Assembly (NCBI GenBank): GCA_919902485.1
Contig: CAKKRB010000023.1
Location: 1-48,312, forward strand
DNA: 48,312 nucleotides
From: Omnitrophica bacterium GWA2_41_15
GTDB taxonomy: Bacteria; Omnitrophota; Gorgyraeia; Gorgyraeales; Gorgyraeaceae
Direction: 5' to 3'
Part shown: positions 2,339 through 11,036 of the stretch, piece after piece
Position numbering within the stretch: the first letter of the stretch is position 1
Layout: each line of letters begins with the position of its first letter
Notes under the pieces: generated by a model
Told to the model about the DNA's origin: nothing
The model's input: only the letters and a program-made list of their open reading frames with translations
Database searches by the model: none
Translations under genes and position numbers: made by a program

Positions 2339-2523
2339 CACGCTTCTCCCTTTTTAATCTTTTCCCAGATTTCTATTTTTCTTTTTGGCAAGGTCTTATA
2401 TACAAAATTATTTACTTCTTCCAGCCATTCCAATTTCGCCTTCGCAGGCATATCCATAGTTTCTTTAATATAATTGATATCAGGCTTAAAAGCAAATCCC
2501 TTTTTGATTTTCTTCTTATGCAT
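2338..2523 (-). CDS. small hypothetical protein (61 aa), translationally coupled to the upstream nucleotidyltransferase-like gene
   Basis: ATG at 2523 overlaps the stop of the 2516..3031 ORF by 8 nt. Lys-rich N-terminus, ..[15 protein letters not shown].. I recognise no family. Confidence 0.35.
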
Positions 2524-3031
2524 TATTCTTCCTGAGTCTTTCAACTTCTCTCAATGCCTCTATATCTGTGATATCCTGCGGCCTGCCAGCAATTGCCTTC
2601 ATCTTTTTTAAATATTTTATAGATATAATAGGTATCTTGACTCTTCCTGCTTTTATGTCTTCCTTTTCTTTATAAGCTTTTTCAAAATCTACAGGCTCAT
2701 AAATAAAGACATCTATGTGGTCCTGATGCCTTTTTAAATGGCAAAAAGAAAATACCAGCATGTTTTTTTCTTTTTTCCATTTTTCCCTGCTGGATTTATC
2801 TGCAAAATCTGATGCCTTAACAGGAATCTTTGGCCTGTATCCTAAATCAGTTAATACCTCTATAAATTTTAATAAATTCTTTTTTTCAAAATCTACAAAT
2901 AAATCAAGGTCAGCTGTCATCCTTACTACGCCATGTAAAACTACAGCCCAGCCGCCAACAACTAAATATCTGACCTTGGTTTTATTCAGCCCCCTGAACA
3001 CCTTTTCATAAAACATAGGTTTAATATACAC
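2516..3031 (-). CDS. putative minimal nucleotidyltransferase-fold protein (DUF6036-like)
   Basis: LVVGGWAVVLHGVVRMTADLDLFVD resembles the G-G-x..HG..R.T.D-x-D nucleotidyltransferase signature. 171 aa. Confidence 0.4.
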   Translation of the reverse strand: MYIKPMFYEKVFRGLNKTKVRYLVVGGWAVVLHGVVRMTADLDLFVDFEKKNLLKFIEVLTDLGYRPKIPVKASDFADKSSREKWKKEKNMLVFSFCHLKRHQDHIDVFIYEPVDFEKAYKEKEDIKAGRVKIPIISIKYLKKMKAIAGRPQDITDIEALREVERLRKNNA

Positions 3032-3151
3032 CAGGCTGGATTAAAAATCAAAGGAAATTAACTGTTCAGGCATTTGGCAGGCGAAACTATGCGGAAGAAT
3101 CAGAATTAATTCCATCCACTTGCGCTATATAAGGCAAACCATATGCGCGGG

Positions 3152-6100
3152 TTATAAATTTTCTCTTGCGCTATGGCTACTATGAAGTATGGCATTAGTT
3201 CCTGGTTCTCCAAGCCATACATTGCCAACTCTAAAGGTAAGCGCGCAATCTTGCCTCCTTATTCCCTTTAAAATTGTCTTATATATAGCTTTTCCATTTT
3301 GAAAATATTCCAATTCTAAAGGAATAGTTACCCATGCCGCATCATCAGGGGTATCGGGAGATGACATAGCATTGGTTCTCACATAGGCCCTTGGCGGTTC
3401 TACTCCAGGCGCAATGAGTATCTCAATAAATACTTCCTCTTTACCATCGCTCAAATCTACAGGAAGCGTCTCTCCAAGCGCAGGCTCTGCTCTTGAGATT
3501 TGAATACCATGAGCAGAAAGATTAATGTTTGCCTCTGTCATAGCGTCATTCTTGCCCATAAGCTTAATATCAAAGGTTTCATTTTCTCCTATTACTTCGC
3601 TCCACCATATAAGGTACGCAGCTATTGTATTACTAACAGTCAATTTGCGGCTTAAAGGTATGGAATTTACTTCATTTCGAGCATAAGCCTCACGATTATT
3701 GTTATAAAAATCTATGTCACGATTAAATGCCTCCCAGAAAGCCCCTTCTGTATTATCGCAAGGCACTATCAGGTTAACGCCTACACTTCCAAGAGAGATT
3801 TGTGTGCCGCCTTCTATCCATGGAGCTGCCAGCTGTTTACCCCCGCTTGCAGTCACGTCAGCTTCCTTAAATTCTTCTGCTCCTGTTCCTCTTCTTGAAA
3901 CCTGACCTTGTACATTCGTAGCTGCAAGAAGCACTCTTTGCTCTTCAGGAGTAAATTTATCAACTAATATAAATGTGCCTTTATAAGCAGAATTCTCTCC
4001 ATTCTTTTTCTTATCATCTTCTATCTCCTCTGCCAATCTCCTGAGTTCTCTATAAAGAGCTATGCTCTCTCTATAAGGCTGGGCATTAGCAAAAAATATA
4101 ACCTGAGCGCCTTTTTTTACTATTTTTCTTATATTCTCTTTTGTAAAAGCCTTAAGGTCTTCTGTCCCGCCTTCCTCAATCCTGCCTTCTCCAATTCCAA
4201 GCTTTTCAGGAACAAGCCGTCCGCTATAGGATATAATAATTTTTTCAGGGTCGAGCTCCAAATACCCTGAGATAATCAAAGGGCTGCTTTTTTTCTCTTT
4301 CAGCATACTGATTAATTTTTCCTTTGCCTTTTTATCTGCAGCTATCATCTGCTCTATTGTAGGATGCTCTACATCTGCATCAGGATATAATTCCAATAAT
4401 ATCTTACGGAATTCTTTTGCTGAAAGCTCGCGCAAGTCTCCATTCGCAAGGCCGCGTAAAGGCAGTGCGTCAATTTCGCTTACTTCAAATGCATGTATGC
4501 GCGAAACACCATTAGGCATATGAGATGTCCTTAACCCTACAGAGCTATCATCAACAACTATCTGACCATCAGGAAGTTTGCTCAGATAATACCAATGATA
4601 CTCATCTTTTATGCCTCTTTTGTCTCTTAAAAACTCGCGCGCTTCTTTAAGATTCTTAAAATATTTAATTGCCCTGTTATTATAAGTATGCGTAACACCT
4701 GATATTGGGATCCTTGCTAAGGCAGCGTATTTTTCAGAATCTTTCTGGTATAAATATCTCCTGTAAAACGCAGCAGGCAGGACCTGACTGTCATGCAGGC
4801 TCAGTAAAATATTTCCCCAGCCTTCTTTTCCACTGCTCTCATCCGCCATTTGAGCCATTCTATTTACTAGTTCAGTAACTGCTGCTGAAAAGAAATCTGT
4901 AAACTCGTCCTGTGTGACCCTGCTGTCTTCCTTGCCATATTTATAAAGTTTCCCTACATAATATCTTTCTTTATCCCTGATCAAATAATCTTCCATCTCA
5001 AATATTTCTGTCTCTCCTCTTTCGTTTGGAACCGCTATTTCTTTAATGCGCCTATAGACCTCAACGTGAATAACTCTTCCTCTAAACTCTACCTCTAAAT
5101 CATCTATTATCTTTTCTCCGGGATCCTCGTTAAAATCATTATAGTAGGGCTCGGCCCATACTAATCTTGCCTTATCTTTTATAAAGCGCTTTATAGCCAC
5201 GCTTTTAGATACCGTAACCCTGCCAAGGCCTCCTGCCATACGCGATATCTCCGGCGCAGCAATAACAATGGTTTTTCCTATTAAGTTGGGCGCGTATTTT
5301 TTAAGCCAGTCATCCGGTATCTTTGATGGAGGTAAAAGCGTAAGTCTAATACTGTCAAATATGGTATGGCTATAAAAATTTTCAGATGCGCCTTCACTGC
5401 CATATGTTTTTTCAATGCCAGAAATTCCTGCTATAAGTTTCTGCTGTGCGGCTTCATCCATCGTAGAGACAGCATCCCATATAGGATAAAATGCCTCTAC
5501 AGGATAGTAAGGCCAGAGTTCTTTTGCATACTTTTCATAACTCAAAAGCAGTGCATTGAGCTGGGATGAATCGCCAAGCTTAGATTCTATTTCTTTCCTT
5601 ATATAATCATAGTCATTACACCATAGAGCTGCTGTGCGGCGTTTCTTATCTCCTGAAATCTTATAGTAACCTTTTTCCCTTTCGATCAATCCTGATGCTG
5701 AGAGTTCACCTAGTAACCCTACAACATATTCCGCAGAAAGCTTTGCATCCTGTTTTAAAATTCCTAAAGCCTTCATCTTAGACTCAAGTTTTTCTCTTAT
5801 CCCTTCAGCTGTTACAGGCCCTTCTTCTATTAAAACCATATCCAGCGCTGTCTGGAGCTTTAACCATTTCGGCTCTGTCACAATCTGCCCGCTTCTCAAG
5901 AATAAAAGCGAGGCAGGATCCATCATACCCTTCAACAGCTTATCCTTTTCAATCACCTGGATATCTGACCTATATTGGCCTCCTCTTAGATTAACGCATA
6001 ATGTATACATCTTAACGCTATTTCCAGCCTCGTCCTTAAAGTCAACTTCCACAATGCCTTCATAGTCATCACCTATATGCTGATATCGCACTTCAACTTT

Positions 6101-8095
6101 CCCCTCATAATCTAATATTTCTTTTACTATCTCTCTTACTTTTTCTGAAAACTCAGCAAACCCGGGGAAAATCCGTTCTGCTTCTTTTTCTAAATCTACA
6201 TAACCCTGGAACCCATACATATAAAAAAGAGGATGCGTATATCCTTCAGCTGTCCCTGAATATTCCATAATAGAAACTCTTTGCCTGTCTTCTTCAGACA
6301 AGCTAATCCACGCCATATACACGCCAAGATAATATGCCCTTAATTTATCTATATTCCATTCCCCTCTCATATCCTTTCCTATGGCATTGATAATAGGACC
6401 ATACTGGGCCTCATCATGGTCATCAAAAATTACCCATGAGGATTGGGGTCTGGATAAATTTCTAAGCCTGGCTTTGAGCAACCCTTGCAATGTTTTAAAA
6501 GAAGTTTGGCCTTCCTGCCTACTGCCGTAATCTCTCAATTCATTATGTATGCCTCCTTGACCTTGTGACTTTGAAAGCACAAGATCTGCGTGAGGCACTT
6601 CTAAAAAGTGTTCCCATTCTCCAATCAGGCCAAGGCCAAGCTTTTTAGCATTTTCCCAGAGTCTATATCCGCCTTTGCTCAAACCTCCCATCTGATCGCA
6701 GCGCACCCATTGAACTCCTAATTTTCTAAGCCTCCTTAAGAACCATGTTGCCAATAATACTGTCTCATCTTTGGAATAATCAAGTTGATACCCCCATGGG
6801 CTGGGCTGATTAGAATAACACCTGTCCGGAAACGGCCTTCCTGATAAATCGCCTCCTGTATGCTCAAGCACAATATCCACTATTATCTCTACCCCATTCT
6901 TTCTCGCCGTATCCACAAGTAATCTAAAATCCTCATCATTCCCATAACGCGGGTCAAAATATAATCCGAAATAACTATAAGGAGAAAGTTCAGCCCCCAT
7001 TGCCTGCAGGCTGCCCATAAGCATTATGCTGTCGTATCCCTTATATCTGGCTATATTATTTGCAAGCCATTTAAATCTATTAGTCTCTGTTTTACATTCT
7101 GCGTCAAGATTTACCTGTTTTATTATTCTTGGCTTTTTAAAAGGAGGGTTTTCTGTGGACTCAAAAGATTTATTATTCTCATACTCGGTTTTAACCTTTT
7201 CTATAAGCGCTTTTACATCCTCATCCTGAACCCCGGAACGGTTATAAATCTCCTCCAGATATTCTATCAACTTTACAGGTAAGCCTACCATTGTTATATC
7301 TCCGCCAAACTCTGAACTATTCTCTGATGCCTGATTTATATACCCGATTAAGTGCCTTATTAAATCACAATTCCATGGAAGCTCTTCTTTGAACTCTTCT
7401 GCCAGTTTTGATTCTAAAGAAACAGCTGTTTGCTTTAATCTATGCATAACGCTGCCGTCTGTTTCTTTAAGTTCCTGCATAAAAATATTCACATATCTAA
7501 CCACAGCCTGATCCTGTTCTTCTTTGCCTGGCTTCAATCTTACGGCTTGTAGCGCAATTTGATATCCTTCGCCATGCCCATTGTGGTATCGAACAAAACC
7601 AGCATAGCTCATTAATGCCAAATATAACCTGTAATTAAATTTATCCCCGTCTGCCTTTTTCAGATTTTCAACCAGCCAGCCTGCAAACTTAACAGGATCC
7701 TGCAGAATCTGCTTATCAAGTGTCCCAGGCAAAGAACCTGTTTCTTGTTCTAATAAAAATTCTCTCCATTTTTCTACCTCTTCTCCTATTTTTCTATTGC
7801 CATGCTCATCAAAACCGGATAATTCAGCATCGCTGCTATCCAAAAAACCAAGAAGTTTCTTATTGGTTACAGGGATATGTTTTTCTCCGTAAGCAAAAAA
7901 AAGATTTGAGGTCAGACTGAATAAGCTGCTCCTTTGCTTATCGATCCCAATAGGGACTCTTAATTTATGTCTTATATTTAACTTATGTTTTAAATATATT
8001 GTATCTTGAGATGATAATAAAGAAGTAAAGACAAAGATTTGGATTAATACGCAGGATATTATCTTTTGGATTTTATGGTGTGTGGAGTTTATCAT
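3152..8095 (-). CDS. 1647-aa exported multidomain alpha-glucan enzyme: GH13-like catalytic module fused to a GT-B glucan phosphorylase/synthase-like module
   Basis: N-terminal hydrophobic signal/anchor (SCVLIQIFVFTSLLSS). GH13 regions I-IV are recognisable: GVEIIVDIVLEHTG, VQWVRCDQMGGL, LIGEWEH, VIFDDHDE, so the Asp/Glu/Asp triad is retained. Downstream there are GT35/GT5-like strings: APEISRMAGGLGRV, GVTHTYNN, PNGVSRIHAFEVS, YSGRLVPEKLG, EADVTASGGKQLA. A C-terminal ~150 aa may be a beta-sandwich. Confidence 0.55.
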   Translation of the reverse strand: MINSTHHKIQKIISCVLIQIFVFTSLLSSQDTIYLKHKLNIRHKLRVPIGIDKQRSSLFSLTSNLFFAYGEKHIPVTNKKLLGFLDSSDAELSGFDEHGNRKIGEEVEKWREFLLEQETGSLPGTLDKQILQDPVKFAGWLVENLKKADGDKFNYRLYLALMSYAGFVRYHNGHGEGYQIALQAVRLKPGKEEQDQAVVRYVNIFMQELKETDGSVMHRLKQTAVSLESKLAEEFKEELPWNCDLIRHLIGYINQASENSSEFGGDITMVGLPVKLIEYLEEIYNRSGVQDEDVKALIEKVKTEYENNKSFESTENPPFKKPRIIKQVNLDAECKTETNRFKWLANNIARYKGYDSIMLMGSLQAMGAELSPYSYFGLYFDPRYGNDEDFRLLVDTARKNGVEIIVDIVLEHTGGDLSGRPFPDRCYSNQPSPWGYQLDYSKDETVLLATWFLRRLRKLGVQWVRCDQMGGLSKGGYRLWENAKKLGLGLIGEWEHFLEVPHADLVLSKSQGQGGIHNELRDYGSRQEGQTSFKTLQGLLKARLRNLSRPQSSWVIFDDHDEAQYGPIINAIGKDMRGEWNIDKLRAYYLGVYMAWISLSEEDRQRVSIMEYSGTAEGYTHPLFYMYGFQGYVDLEKEAERIFPGFAEFSEKVREIVKEILDYEGKVEVRYQHIGDDYEGIVEVDFKDEAGNSVKMYTLCVNLRGGQYRSDIQVIEKDKLLKGMMDPASLLFLRSGQIVTEPKWLKLQTALDMVLIEEGPVTAEGIREKLESKMKALGILKQDAKLSAEYVVGLLGELSASGLIEREKGYYKISGDKKRRTAALWCNDYDYIRKEIESKLGDSSQLNALLLSYEKYAKELWPYYPVEAFYPIWDAVSTMDEAAQQKLIAGISGIEKTYGSEGASENFYSHTIFDSIRLTLLPPSKIPDDWLKKYAPNLIGKTIVIAAPEISRMAGGLGRVTVSKSVAIKRFIKDKARLVWAEPYYNDFNEDPGEKIIDDLEVEFRGRVIHVEVYRRIKEIAVPNERGETEIFEMEDYLIRDKERYYVGKLYKYGKEDSRVTQDEFTDFFSAAVTELVNRMAQMADESSGKEGWGNILLSLHDSQVLPAAFYRRYLYQKDSEKYAALARIPISGVTHTYNNRAIKYFKNLKEAREFLRDKRGIKDEYHWYYLSKLPDGQIVVDDSSVGLRTSHMPNGVSRIHAFEVSEIDALPLRGLANGDLRELSAKEFRKILLELYPDADVEHPTIEQMIAADKKAKEKLISMLKEKKSSPLIISGYLELDPEKIIISYSGRLVPEKLGIGEGRIEEGGTEDLKAFTKENIRKIVKKGAQVIFFANAQPYRESIALYRELRRLAEEIEDDKKKNGENSAYKGTFILVDKFTPEEQRVLLAATNVQGQVSRRGTGAEEFKEADVTASGGKQLAAPWIEGGTQISLGSVGVNLIVPCDNTEGAFWEAFNRDIDFYNNNREAYARNEVNSIPLSRKLTVSNTIAAYLIWWSEVIGENETFDIKLMGKNDAMTEANINLSAHGIQISRAEPALGETLPVDLSDGKEEVFIEILIAPGVEPPRAYVRTNAMSSPDTPDDAAWVTIPLELEYFQNGKAIYKTILKGIRRQDCALTFRVGNVWLGEPGTNAILHSSHSARENL

Positions 8096-8136: not shown

Positions 8137-8165
8137 AGTTTAACACATATTTCTAACTATGTCAA
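8137..8165 (-). promoter_or_regulatory. sigma70-type promoter candidate for the 1647-aa gene
   Basis: Minus strand: TTGACA (8165..8160), 17-nt spacer, TAAACT (8142..8137). It lies ~40 nt upstream of the ATG at 8095. Confidence 0.5.
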
Positions 8166-8184: not shown

Positions 8185-8736
8185 TTACTTAGACAGGGTT
8201 ATTGATGTCTGAGCCTGGTATTTGCCTTTACGGTCAGCATAGGTGGTTTCGCATTGTTCGCTTGACTCAAAAAATACAACCTGGCCTATACCTTCATTGG
8301 CGTATATTTTTGCGCTGGAAGGTGAAGTATTGCTTATAGCTATTGTAAGATAACCTTCCCATGAAGGCTCAAGCGGAGTAACATTTACTATTACCCCAAT
8401 CCTGGCATATGTACTTTTGCCTGTGCAAAGCGCAAGAACATTTGAAGGCATCTTAAAATACTCAAATGACCTTGCAAGTATAAACGAATTAGGCGGTATG
8501 ATGCAAAAATCGCTTTTCAAGTCTTGAAATAAACCTGGTTTTACATTTTTGGGGTCTATTGTATCTTTACTGCCAGCATACTTGAATATCTTAAACTCAT
8601 CAGCTAATCTTATATCATAGCCATAACTTGATAAGCCATAGGATATATTGCCTTTTTTTATCTGATCTGGCTCAAATGGCTTGATCATTTCATATTCAAG
8701 AGCCATCTTTTTAATCCAGGTGTCTGGTTTTAGCAT
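8185..8736 (-). CDS. dcd: dCTP deaminase
   Basis: [44 protein letters not shown] matches the typical Dcd N-terminus. The chosen ATG at 8736 lies 3 nt after the nrdJ stop. The track ORF extends 8 codons further, into nrdJ. Confidence 0.85.
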
Positions 8737-11036
8737 TTTGAATAACCGCAAGAGCGGCACACAACGCAGCCTTCTTCGTGCCTTAACGCAGCACCGCAGT
8801 CAGGGCATACGCCAACAACTGTGCCTAACTTGTCTTCTATCATTGTATGAGGCGAATGTTTTTCAAATGCCTCTTCCTGATGGTGCATCTTTCCGTTCCC
8901 AAGCCTTAATTCAAGCACCCTTGCAATGGCATCAGCGCAGGAGAAAATCCTTCCGCTTTTTTCCCATGAAGGAGACGGGCAACGTATGCCTCTTAACTGC
9001 TCCACTATTCTACTATTCTCAACGCCTGAACGTAGTGCAAGCGACACAAGCCTTCCGATTGCCTCAAGCTGGCTTGCAGCGCATCCGCCTGCCTTGCCCA
9101 TCTGGATAAATACTTCAAAAGGCATATTAGAATCATCCACATTAATAGTGATGTAAAGATTGCCGCATCCTGTTGCTACCTTTGTAGTGGTGCCCTTTGT
9201 AACAACAGGCCTTGGCCTTGGGGCAACGCTTTTATTTTCTTTAAGATCTGTAGGGGAGGGTTTTAAACCCTCCCCTACATCCTTCTTTGTATTATTTGAA
9301 TTTATGTTCAGCACCTGTTCCTCCCTTGATTTATCCCTGTAAATGGTTACGCCCTTGCAGCCTAACTTAAAGGCCAGCATATACACCTCGCGCACGTCAT
9401 CCTTTGTGGCCTCGTGAGGGAAATTCACTGTCTTTGAAACAGCATTATCAGTATATTTCTGAAACACCGCCTGCATCCTGATATGCCATAATGGCGCTAT
9501 ATCATGAGAAATGACAAATATCTTTCTGTACTTTTCAGGTACCTCTTCTATATCCTTTATGGAACCTTTTTCTGCAATTGATTCCATAAGCTTCCTTGAA
9601 CAAAAGCCTTCCCTCTTTGCGGTTTCCTCAAAAAGGGCATTGACCTCAATGAGCTTGTCATTATCCATCACATTTCTGTAATAAGACAATGCAAACAAAG
9701 GCTCAATCCCGCTTGAGGCGTCAGAAATGATTGATATGGTTCCCGTGGGAGCAATAGTCGTAAGCGTGGCGTTTCTTAATTTTTTCGCTCCGGTTTCAGC
9801 AAATACGCTCTCATTGAATGAAGGGAACGCCCCTCTTTTTTGCGCCAATTCCTGAGATTTAATCTTTGCTTCATCAGATATAAACTTCATTATTTTTTCG
9901 CCAAGCTGAACCGCCTCTTCGCTATTATAAGGTATCTCGAGTTTTATAAGCATATCTGCCCAGCCCATTACACCAAGGCCTATTTTTCTATTTGTCCTGG
10001 TCATCTTCTCTATCTCAGGCAGAGGGAATTTATTCACGTCAATAACATTGTCAAGAAAATGCACGCTCACATGTACAAGCTTTCTCAGCTTATCCCAATC
10101 TATTTCCTTTTTCTCGTCTCCATATACCACTCTGGAAAGATTTATAGAACCTAAGTTACACGATTCAAATGGAAGCAAAACTTGTTCACCGCAAGGATTG
10201 GTTGACTCATATTTTCCCAGTTTTGGTGTCGGGTTAAATTCGTTCATCTTATCAATAAATATCATTCCTGGTTCGCCATTTTTCCATGAGCATTCAACAA
10301 TCAAATCAAATACCTCTTTTGCCCTGAGCCTTTTAACCTCCTTATTTAAATGCGGATCTATTAGCGAATATTCCTCATCATCTATCACCTTTTTCATAAA
10401 ATCTTCTGTAACTGCAACAGATATGTTAAAATTTGTTATCTCCTTATCGCTCTCCTTACACCTGATAAATTCCAGTATATCAGGGTGTTCTACGCGTAAT
10501 ATCCCCATGTTCGCGCCCCTGCGCGTGCCTCCCTGTTTCACAGCCTGGGTTGCAGCGTTGAATACCTTCATAAAAGAAACAGGGCCGCTTGAAACGCCTC
10601 CTGTAGAGCGAACCACGCTATTTTTAGGCCTGAGCCTTGAAAAGCTAAACCCTGTCCCGCCTCCAGACCGATGAATTAAAGCAGTATTCTTCACTGCTTC
10701 AAAAATAGACTCCATTGAATCTTCTACTGGGATCACAAAGCAGGCCGATAACTGTCCGAGGTCCCTGCCTGCGTTCATAAGCGTGGGGCTATTGGGCATA
10801 AATTCGAAATTTCCCATGATTTTATAAAATCTGTTTTCTGTATCCATCACCTCTGAATCACCTGCGCCATATAATCTGTCAGCCTCTGCTATGTAATGTG
10901 CCACCCTTCTGAACATGCCTTCAGGAGTCTCCATGACTTTCCCATCCTTATCTTTCATGAGATATCTTTTTTCAAGAACCTTAAGGCAATTTTCCGAGAT
11001 GTTTAATTTCTTTTCAGTCTTTGCTTTCAATTCCAT
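8730..11036 (-). CDS. nrdJ: adenosylcobalamin-dependent (class II) ribonucleotide reductase
   Basis: 768 aa with TNPCGEQ active-site loop, ..[26 protein letters not shown].., and a C-terminal zinc ribbon [25 protein letters not shown]. Confidence 0.9.
9250..9278. repeat. GTAGGG-type 29-nt perfect palindrome inside nrdJ
   Basis: GTAGGGGAGGGTTT-T-AAACCCTCCCCTAC. An identical copy lies at 25715..25743. It is translated as [10 protein letters not shown]. Confidence 0.95.

Follow-up and report, generated by a model that had tools for sequence, protein, structure and literature searches.

A leader-bearing Omnitrophota protein joining a GH13-like barrel to a GT5-like GT-B unit

Contig CAKKRB010000023.1 of Omnitrophica bacterium GWA2_41_15 (GenBank assembly GCA_919902485.1) carries a long open reading frame (ORF) in which a hydrophobic leader precedes a GH13-like module and a GT-B glycosyltransferase module. 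Which reaction could such a protein carry out on alpha-glucans, and on which side of the membrane? The window, the whole stretch of DNA analysed here, covers positions 1 to 48,312 of the forward strand (contig C23 in our numbering; 48,312 nucleotides) and belongs to a genome of 1.37 Mb in 297 contigs that is 90% complete. The ORF, referred to as P0001, lies on the minus strand at window positions 3152-8095 (ATG at 8095, stop codon at 3152-3154) and encodes 1647 aa. An original prediction, made from the DNA letters and a list of ORFs, had described it as an exported fusion of a GH13-like module and a phosphorylase/synthase-like GT-B module; the single ORF, all of the motifs quoted for it and the proposed five-part layout were recovered in our analysis. 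With moderate confidence, we believe that P0001 is a leader-bearing two-enzyme protein active on alpha-glucans and a small member of a modular multi-enzyme family of the Omnitrophota. Its main parts are as follows.

Window 8006..8095, minus strand: N-terminal leader (aa 1-30), with Lys8 and Lys11, a hydrophobic core at aa 12-27 and then Ser-Ser-Gln
Window 5936..7135, minus strand: divergent GH13 (beta/alpha)8 barrel with a C-terminal beta-sandwich domain (aa ~321-720), assigned from fold, profile and residues
Window 6695-6697 (Asp467), 6617-6619 (Glu493) and 6413-6415 (Asp561), minus strand: GH13 catalytic residues
Window 5282..5878, minus strand: helical N-terminal domain of the recurrent unit (aa 740-938), with a predicted local distance difference test (pLDDT) score >90 in the AlphaFold2 (AF2) model
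Window 3584..5281, minus strand: GT-B glycosyltransferase core of the GT5-like glucan-synthase type (aa 939-1504), assigned from the AF2 model and structure/profile comparison

The source genome is a fragmented metagenome-assembled genome (MAG) of 297 contigs, which would leave room for two unrelated genes fused by misassembly, and the original prediction had itself raised a chimeric assembly as the outcome to look for. This was not borne out. Full-length, collinear orthologues with 67% identity were present in three other assemblies, and the order of parts was identical in P0002 (1629 aa, on an ENA contig), in P0003 (from an NCBI MAG labelled Candidatus Omnitrophota) and in the 1618-aa ORF of genome G274, which belongs to the same genus. 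GC content across the gene is even (0.37-0.41) and the reading frame is uninterrupted. Because collinear full-length orthologues occur in independent assemblies, the gene is not chimeric; the ORF is genuine, and the chance of a misassembly appears vanishingly small.

A GT5-like GT-B unit and a GH13-like barrel

The model of the GT-B half, computed from a 73-sequence alignment, had a pLDDT of 93 and a predicted template modelling (pTM) score of 0.92 over its whole length, and its core is a twin-Rossmann fold. When the model was compared with solved structures by VIA-align, GT5 enzymes were nearest (starch synthase SSIV, 6gne, Z 25.4 over 460 of 494 residues at 2.9 Å; E. coli GlgA, 2qzs, Z 22.8) and GT35 enzymes came second (Z up to 21.6), with aa 939-1504 as the aligned core. 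Four motifs mark this core: MAGGLGRV (aa 953-960), NGVSRIH (aa 1195-1201), SGRLVPEK (aa 1291-1298) and EADVTASGGK (aa 1411-1420). Profile alignment of the unit to the genome's own GlgA with hhalign gave a probability of 98% (E 1.7e-13). PF08323 matched P0001 at 23.3-26.4 bits (cut-off 22.7) and was found in 27 of 30 copies of the unit (best E 6.9e-16). The ~600-aa region that the original prediction had likened to GT35 and GT5 enzymes is thus a GT-B module related to both, as proposed, but it is synthase-like and nearer to GT5 (Z 25.4 versus 21.6). We read the unit as a clade of its own within the GT5/GT35 glucan-enzyme lineage, closer to the GT5 side.

The resemblance to GT5 synthases extends over nearly the whole enzyme. 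Across 2qzs, A. tumefaciens 1rzu, Arabidopsis SSIV (6gne) and GBSS (3vue and 6gnf), Z scores ranged from 22.8 to 25.4 over 444-464 residues, and the His (HN/THT), NG(D), R-x4-K and catalytic Glu motifs aligned. Identity to these synthases is, however, only 12-16%. In contrast to them, P0001 carries a ~50-aa beta-hairpin insertion (aa ~994-1041), a 200-aa helical N-domain and an extra invariant glutamate (Glu1411), and it lacks the lysine of the KxGGL motif. It also has a leader at its N-terminus, which the genome's own GlgA does not.

In all 73 sequences of the alignment, Glu949, Gly955-Gly956-Leu957, Gln1104, His1136, Thr1137, Asn1218, Arg1293, Glu1297, Lys1298, Ser1400 and Glu1411 are invariant, and 72 have Asp1102. 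When the unit is aligned to GlgA and SSIV, His1136 corresponds to GlgA His161, Arg1293/Lys1298 to Arg300/Lys305, and the glutamate of the 'TEA' motif to Glu377. Only two states occur at positions 1405 and 1408 (window 3872-3883): 42 copies have Glu/Gly and 31 have Gly/Glu. P0001 belongs to the latter group, with glycine at 1405 and the carboxylate supplied by Glu1408. The carboxylate equivalent to GlgA Glu377 and phosphorylase Glu672 is therefore shifted by three residues in part of the family. Since the shift is always compensated (E/G versus G/E), the pattern argues for selection on catalysis. The GT-B module may be an active retaining glucosyltransferase that works without pyridoxal phosphate (PLP), in which His1136, a phosphate clamp formed by Arg1293 and Lys1298, and the mobile carboxylate Glu1408 would move glucose between a phosphate-activated donor and an alpha-glucan chain.

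Alternatively, the GT-B module could be a phosphate-using, phosphorylase-like enzyme paired with a hydrolase for extracellular alpha-glucan processing, in its PLP version with Lys1420 as the Schiff-base lysine. The best Foldseek E-value of the model was indeed to a GT35 alpha-glucan phosphorylase (9l6i, E 2.6e-20; GT5 6gne, E 3.5e-16, template modelling (TM) score 0.71 on the target). The GT35 phosphorylases compared (rabbit muscle GP, Segatella copri 9l6i, and E. coli MalP/GlgP) have the same GT-B fold at Z about 20-21.6 and share the motifs GGLGR, (N/T)HT, TNG, R-x4-K and TEA.G...NG, and the motifs of the unit are worded accordingly (GGLGR, T-H-T, TNG, TEAxGY..NGG). Phosphate is also available outside the cell, where nucleotide sugars are not. 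In addition, P0006, a relative of 1112 aa, carries DUF3417 (PF11897, E 1.3e-10) at aa 78-154, between its leader and its GT-B unit; DUF3417 is the N-terminal domain of alpha-glucan family phosphorylases. The lysines speak against this explanation. In the profile alignment with 9l6i and 4l22, the Schiff-base lysine of GT35 (rabbit Lys680, in E-A-S-G-T-x-x-M-K) falls on Asp1413, a position occupied by Asp in 51 and Asn in 18 of the 73 copies. The stretch EADVTASGGK had been put forward as the parallel of the PLP-lysine motif, but its Lys1420 is found only in three close orthologues (3/73), with Leu in 54 of the copies, and the only core columns with Lys in more than 70% are 1254, 1258 and 1298. 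P0001 also lacks the large GT35 insertions and had no PF00343 match at E <= 1 (one of 30 relatives had one, at E 1.7e-3), and structural similarity is greater to GT5. Because the lysine position is Asp or Asn and Lys1420 is not conserved, a PLP-dependent phosphorylase is not supported, and we consider the phosphorylase explanation very unlikely.

The preferred PLP-free glucosyltransferase is preceded by a module in which the original prediction had seen a GH13-like barrel with its catalytic Asp/Glu/Asp context. The triad proved intact, and fold and profile agree with the assignment. The AF2 model of aa 100-745 (pLDDT 75, pTM 0.73) matched at least 500 PDB chains in Foldseek at E <= 0.001 (best E 2.2e-12), and all 50 matches listed were GH13 enzymes (amylases, branching enzymes, neopullulanases and TreZ; TM up to 0.63, for 4gkl). 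DSSP assigned alternating strands and helices to the barrel, followed by four long strands. A profile of eight homologues matched 221 distinct GH13 sequences in the PDB (best E 1.7e-9). The single sequence gave a PF00128 match of 25.9 bits (cut-off 22) at aa 381-416 only, the only PF00128 match in the genome; single-sequence PDB matches were located in the same stretch and were all GH13, and NCBIfam gave weak hints of TreZ, GlgB and amylases. Structure and profile searches by segment therefore supported the GH13 as well as the GT-B assignment.

The catalytic residues of this module lie in the motifs VRCDQ (aa 464-468), GEWEH (aa 492-496) and DDHDE (aa 558-562). Across the eight sequences (23-62% identity), the invariant positions were Asp407...His412, Arg465/Asp467, Glu493 and His560/Asp561, corresponding to region I (DIVLEH, aa 407-412), region II, region III and region IV of GH13. 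They sit at the C-terminal ends of predicted strands beta3, beta4, beta5 and beta7 (strands including 463-467, 489-493 and 552-556). The module shares the barrel with its C-domain, conserved regions I-IV and the catalytic triad with GH13 enzymes such as branching enzymes (1m7x and 4lpc), TreZ (1eh9), B. subtilis amylase (1bag) and AmyB (4gkl). It differs from them in its low identity (11-17%), a short domain B, the missing region-II histidine and the 220-aa helical domain ahead of the barrel, and no GH13 subfamily could be assigned to it. We propose that this module would cut or transglycosylate the same polymer on which the GT-B module acts, with Asp467 as the nucleophile, Glu493 as the acid/base and Asp561 as the stabiliser.

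Recurrence of the unit among long Omnitrophota proteins

The helical domain and the GT-B core together form a ~765-aa unit (aa 740-1504) that recurs at 30-50% identity in Omnitrophota ORFs. It was found in 71 of 401 Omnitrophota genomes (~30-40% identity), in open frames of up to 54,392, 39,687 and 19,748 codons. An exhaustive search of 1.84 billion representative proteins returned 233 matches to the unit; the 150 matches listed were mostly multi-domain proteins of 800-7,600 aa with a few shorter fragments, and no canonical synthase or phosphorylase was among them. Coverage of the helical domain varied among the 73 relatives, with aa 800-938 present in 60 and aa 740-800 in 23. No Pfam family matched aa 735-940 even at E <= 5. 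We inferred a winged-helix-like element at aa ~763-812 from the helix/helix/beta-hairpin pattern assigned by DSSP (helices 24-38 and 49-61 and hairpin 66-73 in model numbering), a secondary structure that fits the winged-helix-turn-helix-like linker of the original prediction.

RSExR tags were present in 22 of 152 relatives; both RSExR and GARLA junction motifs are absent from P0001. In six tagged relatives (P0033, P0040, P0048, P0052, P0064 and P0146), the nearest upstream tag lies 20-170 aa ahead of the GT-B unit and projects to aa ~594-736 of P0001, at aa 594 for P0052 and at aa 701-736 for the other five. The tags thus fall where the GH13 C-domain of P0001 passes into the helical domain, which independently supports the start of a self-contained unit at aa ~740. 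The GH13-like module is the rarer partner: it occurred in seven of the 401 genomes, this one included, and always inside long ORFs. One of these proteins, P0007 (2392 aa), has both the helical region and the barrel in common with P0001. No short relatives of the GH13 part were found at E <= 1e-3 among proteins <905 aa, in a word-indexed search of limited sensitivity.

A 'GT5/starch synthase' domain is common in the giant proteins of Omnitrophota (bioRxiv 10.1101/2023.11.21.568195; 10.64898/2026.06.07.730766). West-Roberts et al. (2023) reported a GT5 glycogen-synthase-like domain as the second most common domain of Archaeovorins (bioRxiv 10.1101/2023.11.21.568195), and a 2026 preprint counted PF08323 in 153 long proteins, termed 'Module 2' long proteins (bioRxiv 10.64898/2026.06.07.730766). 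Because GT5 is structurally nearest, the GlgA profile matches and PF08323 is found in 27 of 30 copies, we equate the unit of P0001 with the reported Archaeovorin GT5-like domain. Archaeovorins and other long Omnitrophota proteins share with P0001 the same ~765-aa unit at 30-50% identity, in ORFs of 800-54,392 codons, and commonly have N-terminal leaders. P0001, in contrast, has only 1647 aa and two enzymes, is without RSExR tags and pairs the unit with the rare GH13-like partner. With its length, its two modules and its lack of RSExR and GARLA motifs, it is best seen as a short relative rather than an Archaeovorin proper.

The combination of domains also has a characterised counterpart. Fungal Ags1 (Ags1/Mok1/AgsB), an alpha-1,3-glucan synthase, has a signal peptide followed by an extracellular GH13 domain, which is a transglycosylase, and by a domain resembling glycogen synthase (PMC5753165). 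As in P0001, the GH13 domain lies N-terminal to the synthase-like one in a single polypeptide led by a signal sequence. The two domains of Ags1 are, however, placed on opposite sides of the membrane, a transmembrane segment separates them, and a multipass exporter follows at the C-terminus. P0001 has neither the segment nor the exporter, so that the resemblance is one of domain order only. With Ags1 joining GH13 to a GT5-like domain and the unit already known from giant Omnitrophota proteins, the suggestion that this architecture had no characterised precedent did not hold. P0001 is a new compact member of an already described Omnitrophota multi-enzyme family, not a one-off.

The leader and the side of the membrane

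An N-terminal signal or anchor had been predicted for P0001 and is present: aa 9-30 form the sole segment above 1.6 on the Kyte-Doolittle scale, and no such segment lies between the modules. P0002 and the G274 orthologue share this conserved leader. With Lys8 and Lys11, a 16-residue core and Ser-Ser-Gln behind it, it resembles a signal peptide; its sequence would fit a Sec-type signal peptide or else a signal anchor that stays uncleaved. A lipoprotein reading of I-I-S-C (aa 12-15) was rejected by inspection, as the hydrophobic core comes after the cysteine and not before it. Leaders were present in 67 of 130 complete relatives (those starting with Met), many with cleavage-site sequences of the A-x-A or A-Q type, and in 51 of them the leader was the only hydrophobic segment. 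With no membrane segment between the modules, both enzymes should lie on the same side of the membrane. Export of P0001 appears likely, and both modules would most likely work outside the cytoplasm, in the periplasm, at the cell surface or at an interface with prey.

Several observations weigh against the reading of P0001 as an exported pair of active enzymes. In the GH13 module, the PF00128 match is confined to 36 residues, the N-terminal model (aa 100-745) was built from eight sequences and is of moderate confidence only, and the region-II histidine (D-x-x-K-H) is missing, with D-Q-M-G-G-L following the nucleophile. Not every GH13 enzyme has this histidine, and a number of transferase subfamilies are without it, so its absence lowers the case for GH13 membership but does not exclude it. 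In the GT-B module, the KxGGL lysine of GT5 (E. coli GlgA Lys15) is replaced by Ala954 (Ala in 47, Gly in 14 and Lys in 5 of the 73 copies), and the glycine loop reads GGLGR, as in GT35. The loss of the GT5 lysine and the GH13 histidine, together with the strong divergence of both modules (12-16% identity to solved enzymes), could point to a non-catalytic scaffold, in which one or both modules are pseudo-enzymes that a surface protein keeps for glucan binding or for structure. Such a scaffold is difficult to reconcile with a GH13 triad and a GT-B His/Arg/Lys/Glu set that stay invariant despite 23-38% identity, or with a compensatory E/G swap that retains the carboxylate, and we consider it quite unlikely.

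The other points bear on an exported location of the two enzymes and on their setting. The flank behind the hydrophobic core (Lys36, Lys38, Arg42, Lys44 and Arg46) is more basic than the N-terminal side, and it would also fit an anchor with the N-terminus out and the C-terminus in (N-out/C-in), leaving the enzymes in the cytoplasm. We know of no nucleotide-sugar or sugar-phosphate donor outside the cytoplasm, and an exported synthase-type enzyme would therefore be without an obvious substrate. The neighbouring genes (nrdJ, dcd, the Bat operon, the NTase-like gene and gpmA) show no functional link to glucan metabolism.

The basic flank and the donor problem would both be accounted for if P0001 were a cytoplasmic, membrane-tethered glycogen enzyme, held by a reverse signal anchor and acting on intracellular glycogen with ADP- or UDP-glucose; it might, for instance, combine a synthase at the membrane with an enzyme that remodels or debranches the polymer. 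P0001 would then supply glucan degradation or remodelling that the genome otherwise seems to miss: it is the sole PF00128 match, and neither a PF00343 phosphorylase nor a GH77 enzyme was found in this 90%-complete genome. A cytoplasmic face is also favoured for the sugar-metabolism modules of long Omnitrophota proteins in the 2026 preprint (10.64898/2026.06.07.730766). On the other hand, with only ~16 residues the hydrophobic core has the usual length of a signal-peptide h-region, textbook leaders with a cleavable A-x-A or A-Q end are seen in many relatives, and the patchy presence of the gene, in one of five other genomes of the genus, is unlike that of a housekeeping function. Canonical leaderless glycogen genes are, moreover, already in place. 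Contig C279 carries a compact leaderless GH57-GlgA-GH57 cluster (L038, L050 and L052), whose GlgA has 476 aa and matches PF08323 at 265 bits, and a second GH57/GT5-like pair lies at the end of contig C110 (L039 and L051); a true GlgC was not found in the genome. Since this separate cluster exists, ordinary glycogen synthesis would not need P0001, and a reading of P0001 as the housekeeping glycogen synthase is weakened. We regard the cytoplasmic alternative as unlikely, if one to be kept in mind.

The preferred reading of an exported two-enzyme protein can be carried one step further. The unit might represent an active, cofactor-free clade, intermediate between GT5 and GT35, with an extracytoplasmic role, either as a PLP-independent phosphorylase or transglycosylase or as a synthase that uses donors from a host or prey, with P0001 as the minimal version of the sugar-enzyme arrays of giant surface proteins. 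We put this forward as a speculation and believe it to be improbable.

Other regions, gene surroundings and significance

Four further features were recorded in and next to the gene.

Window 3176..3511, minus strand: beta-sandwich tail (aa ~1529-1640), eight strands in the AF2 model at pLDDT about 87-96
Window 7136..7798, minus strand: all-helical region (aa ~100-320), AF2 model at pLDDT about 60-85
Window 7946..7963, minus strand: LRVPxG motif (aa 45-50), conserved, 15-25 residues past the leader
Window 8137..8165, minus strand: sigma-70-like promoter candidate, TTGACA, 17 nt and a TG-extended TAAACT, in the 89-bp gap after dcd

The tail agrees in the AF2 model with the beta-sandwich-like ending that had been predicted. 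It is common only to the closest clade (P0002-P0006), and aa 1500-1647 matched no Pfam family even at E <= 5. Its language-model neighbours in the Atlas feature search were CBM53, CBM21 and Alpha-amylase_N clusters at 0.90-0.93, which we treat as leads only. The tail is possibly glucan-binding and may hold the glucan for the two modules.

At the other end of the protein, aa 30-335 matched no Pfam family even at E <= 5, and the Atlas feature search gave no match for aa 100-325. The helical region at aa ~100-320 is common to P0002, P0003 and P0007 and partly to L036. The LRVPxG motif was found in P0001, P0002, P0004, P0005, P0007 (as LRIP) and the G274 orthologue (L002:6019-6318), against a background of 2% of 90-aa windows for the loose pattern; from its sequence and position it could be a sorting or processing signal. 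Proteins carrying the unit also showed several classes of conserved 'head' sequence directly after the signal peptide, for example ...HIQDAH..AQ..., ...LAPPSIF...SD..L..V.FSIA.HFL... and ...LP.PG...L......P.L..G...HPENP..FDF.....

The P0001 gene is flanked upstream by nrdJ-dcd, with a Bat aerotolerance operon farther upstream, past nrdJ, and downstream by an NTase-like gene and gpmA. The pair immediately upstream (window 8185-11036) consists of a class II (B12-type) ribonucleotide reductase with a TSCPD domain that overlaps the start of a dCTP deaminase-like gene. The promoter of its own that had been ascribed to P0001 comes down to a candidate consensus match, because sigma-70-like sites in this region were no more numerous than in shuffled sequence. 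Downstream, ~810 bp (window 2342-3151) separate the P0001 gene from gpmA and hold the NTase-like gene of 171 aa, whereas the G274 orthologue lies directly upstream of gpmA, 88 bp apart (L002:1374-1461), without NTase genes. This difference in spacing is consistent with insertion of the NTase-like gene region.

Giant Omnitrophota proteins carry many glycogen-synthase-like domains, and P0001 bears on the role of these domains and on their location, at the surface or in the cytoplasm. Were the module indeed a cytoplasmic glycogen enzyme, the finding would be routine. P0001 combines one unit with just one partner enzyme, has a simple leader and no other membrane segments, and so makes a practical minimal construct. 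It is suited to the questions of whether the modules are exported, which donor is used, and whether alpha-glucan is built or broken down. Mutational targets for these questions can be taken from the residue map: the positions at which the PLP lysine and GlgA Lys15 are missing, the His/Arg/Lys/Glu residues that never vary, and the E/G swap.

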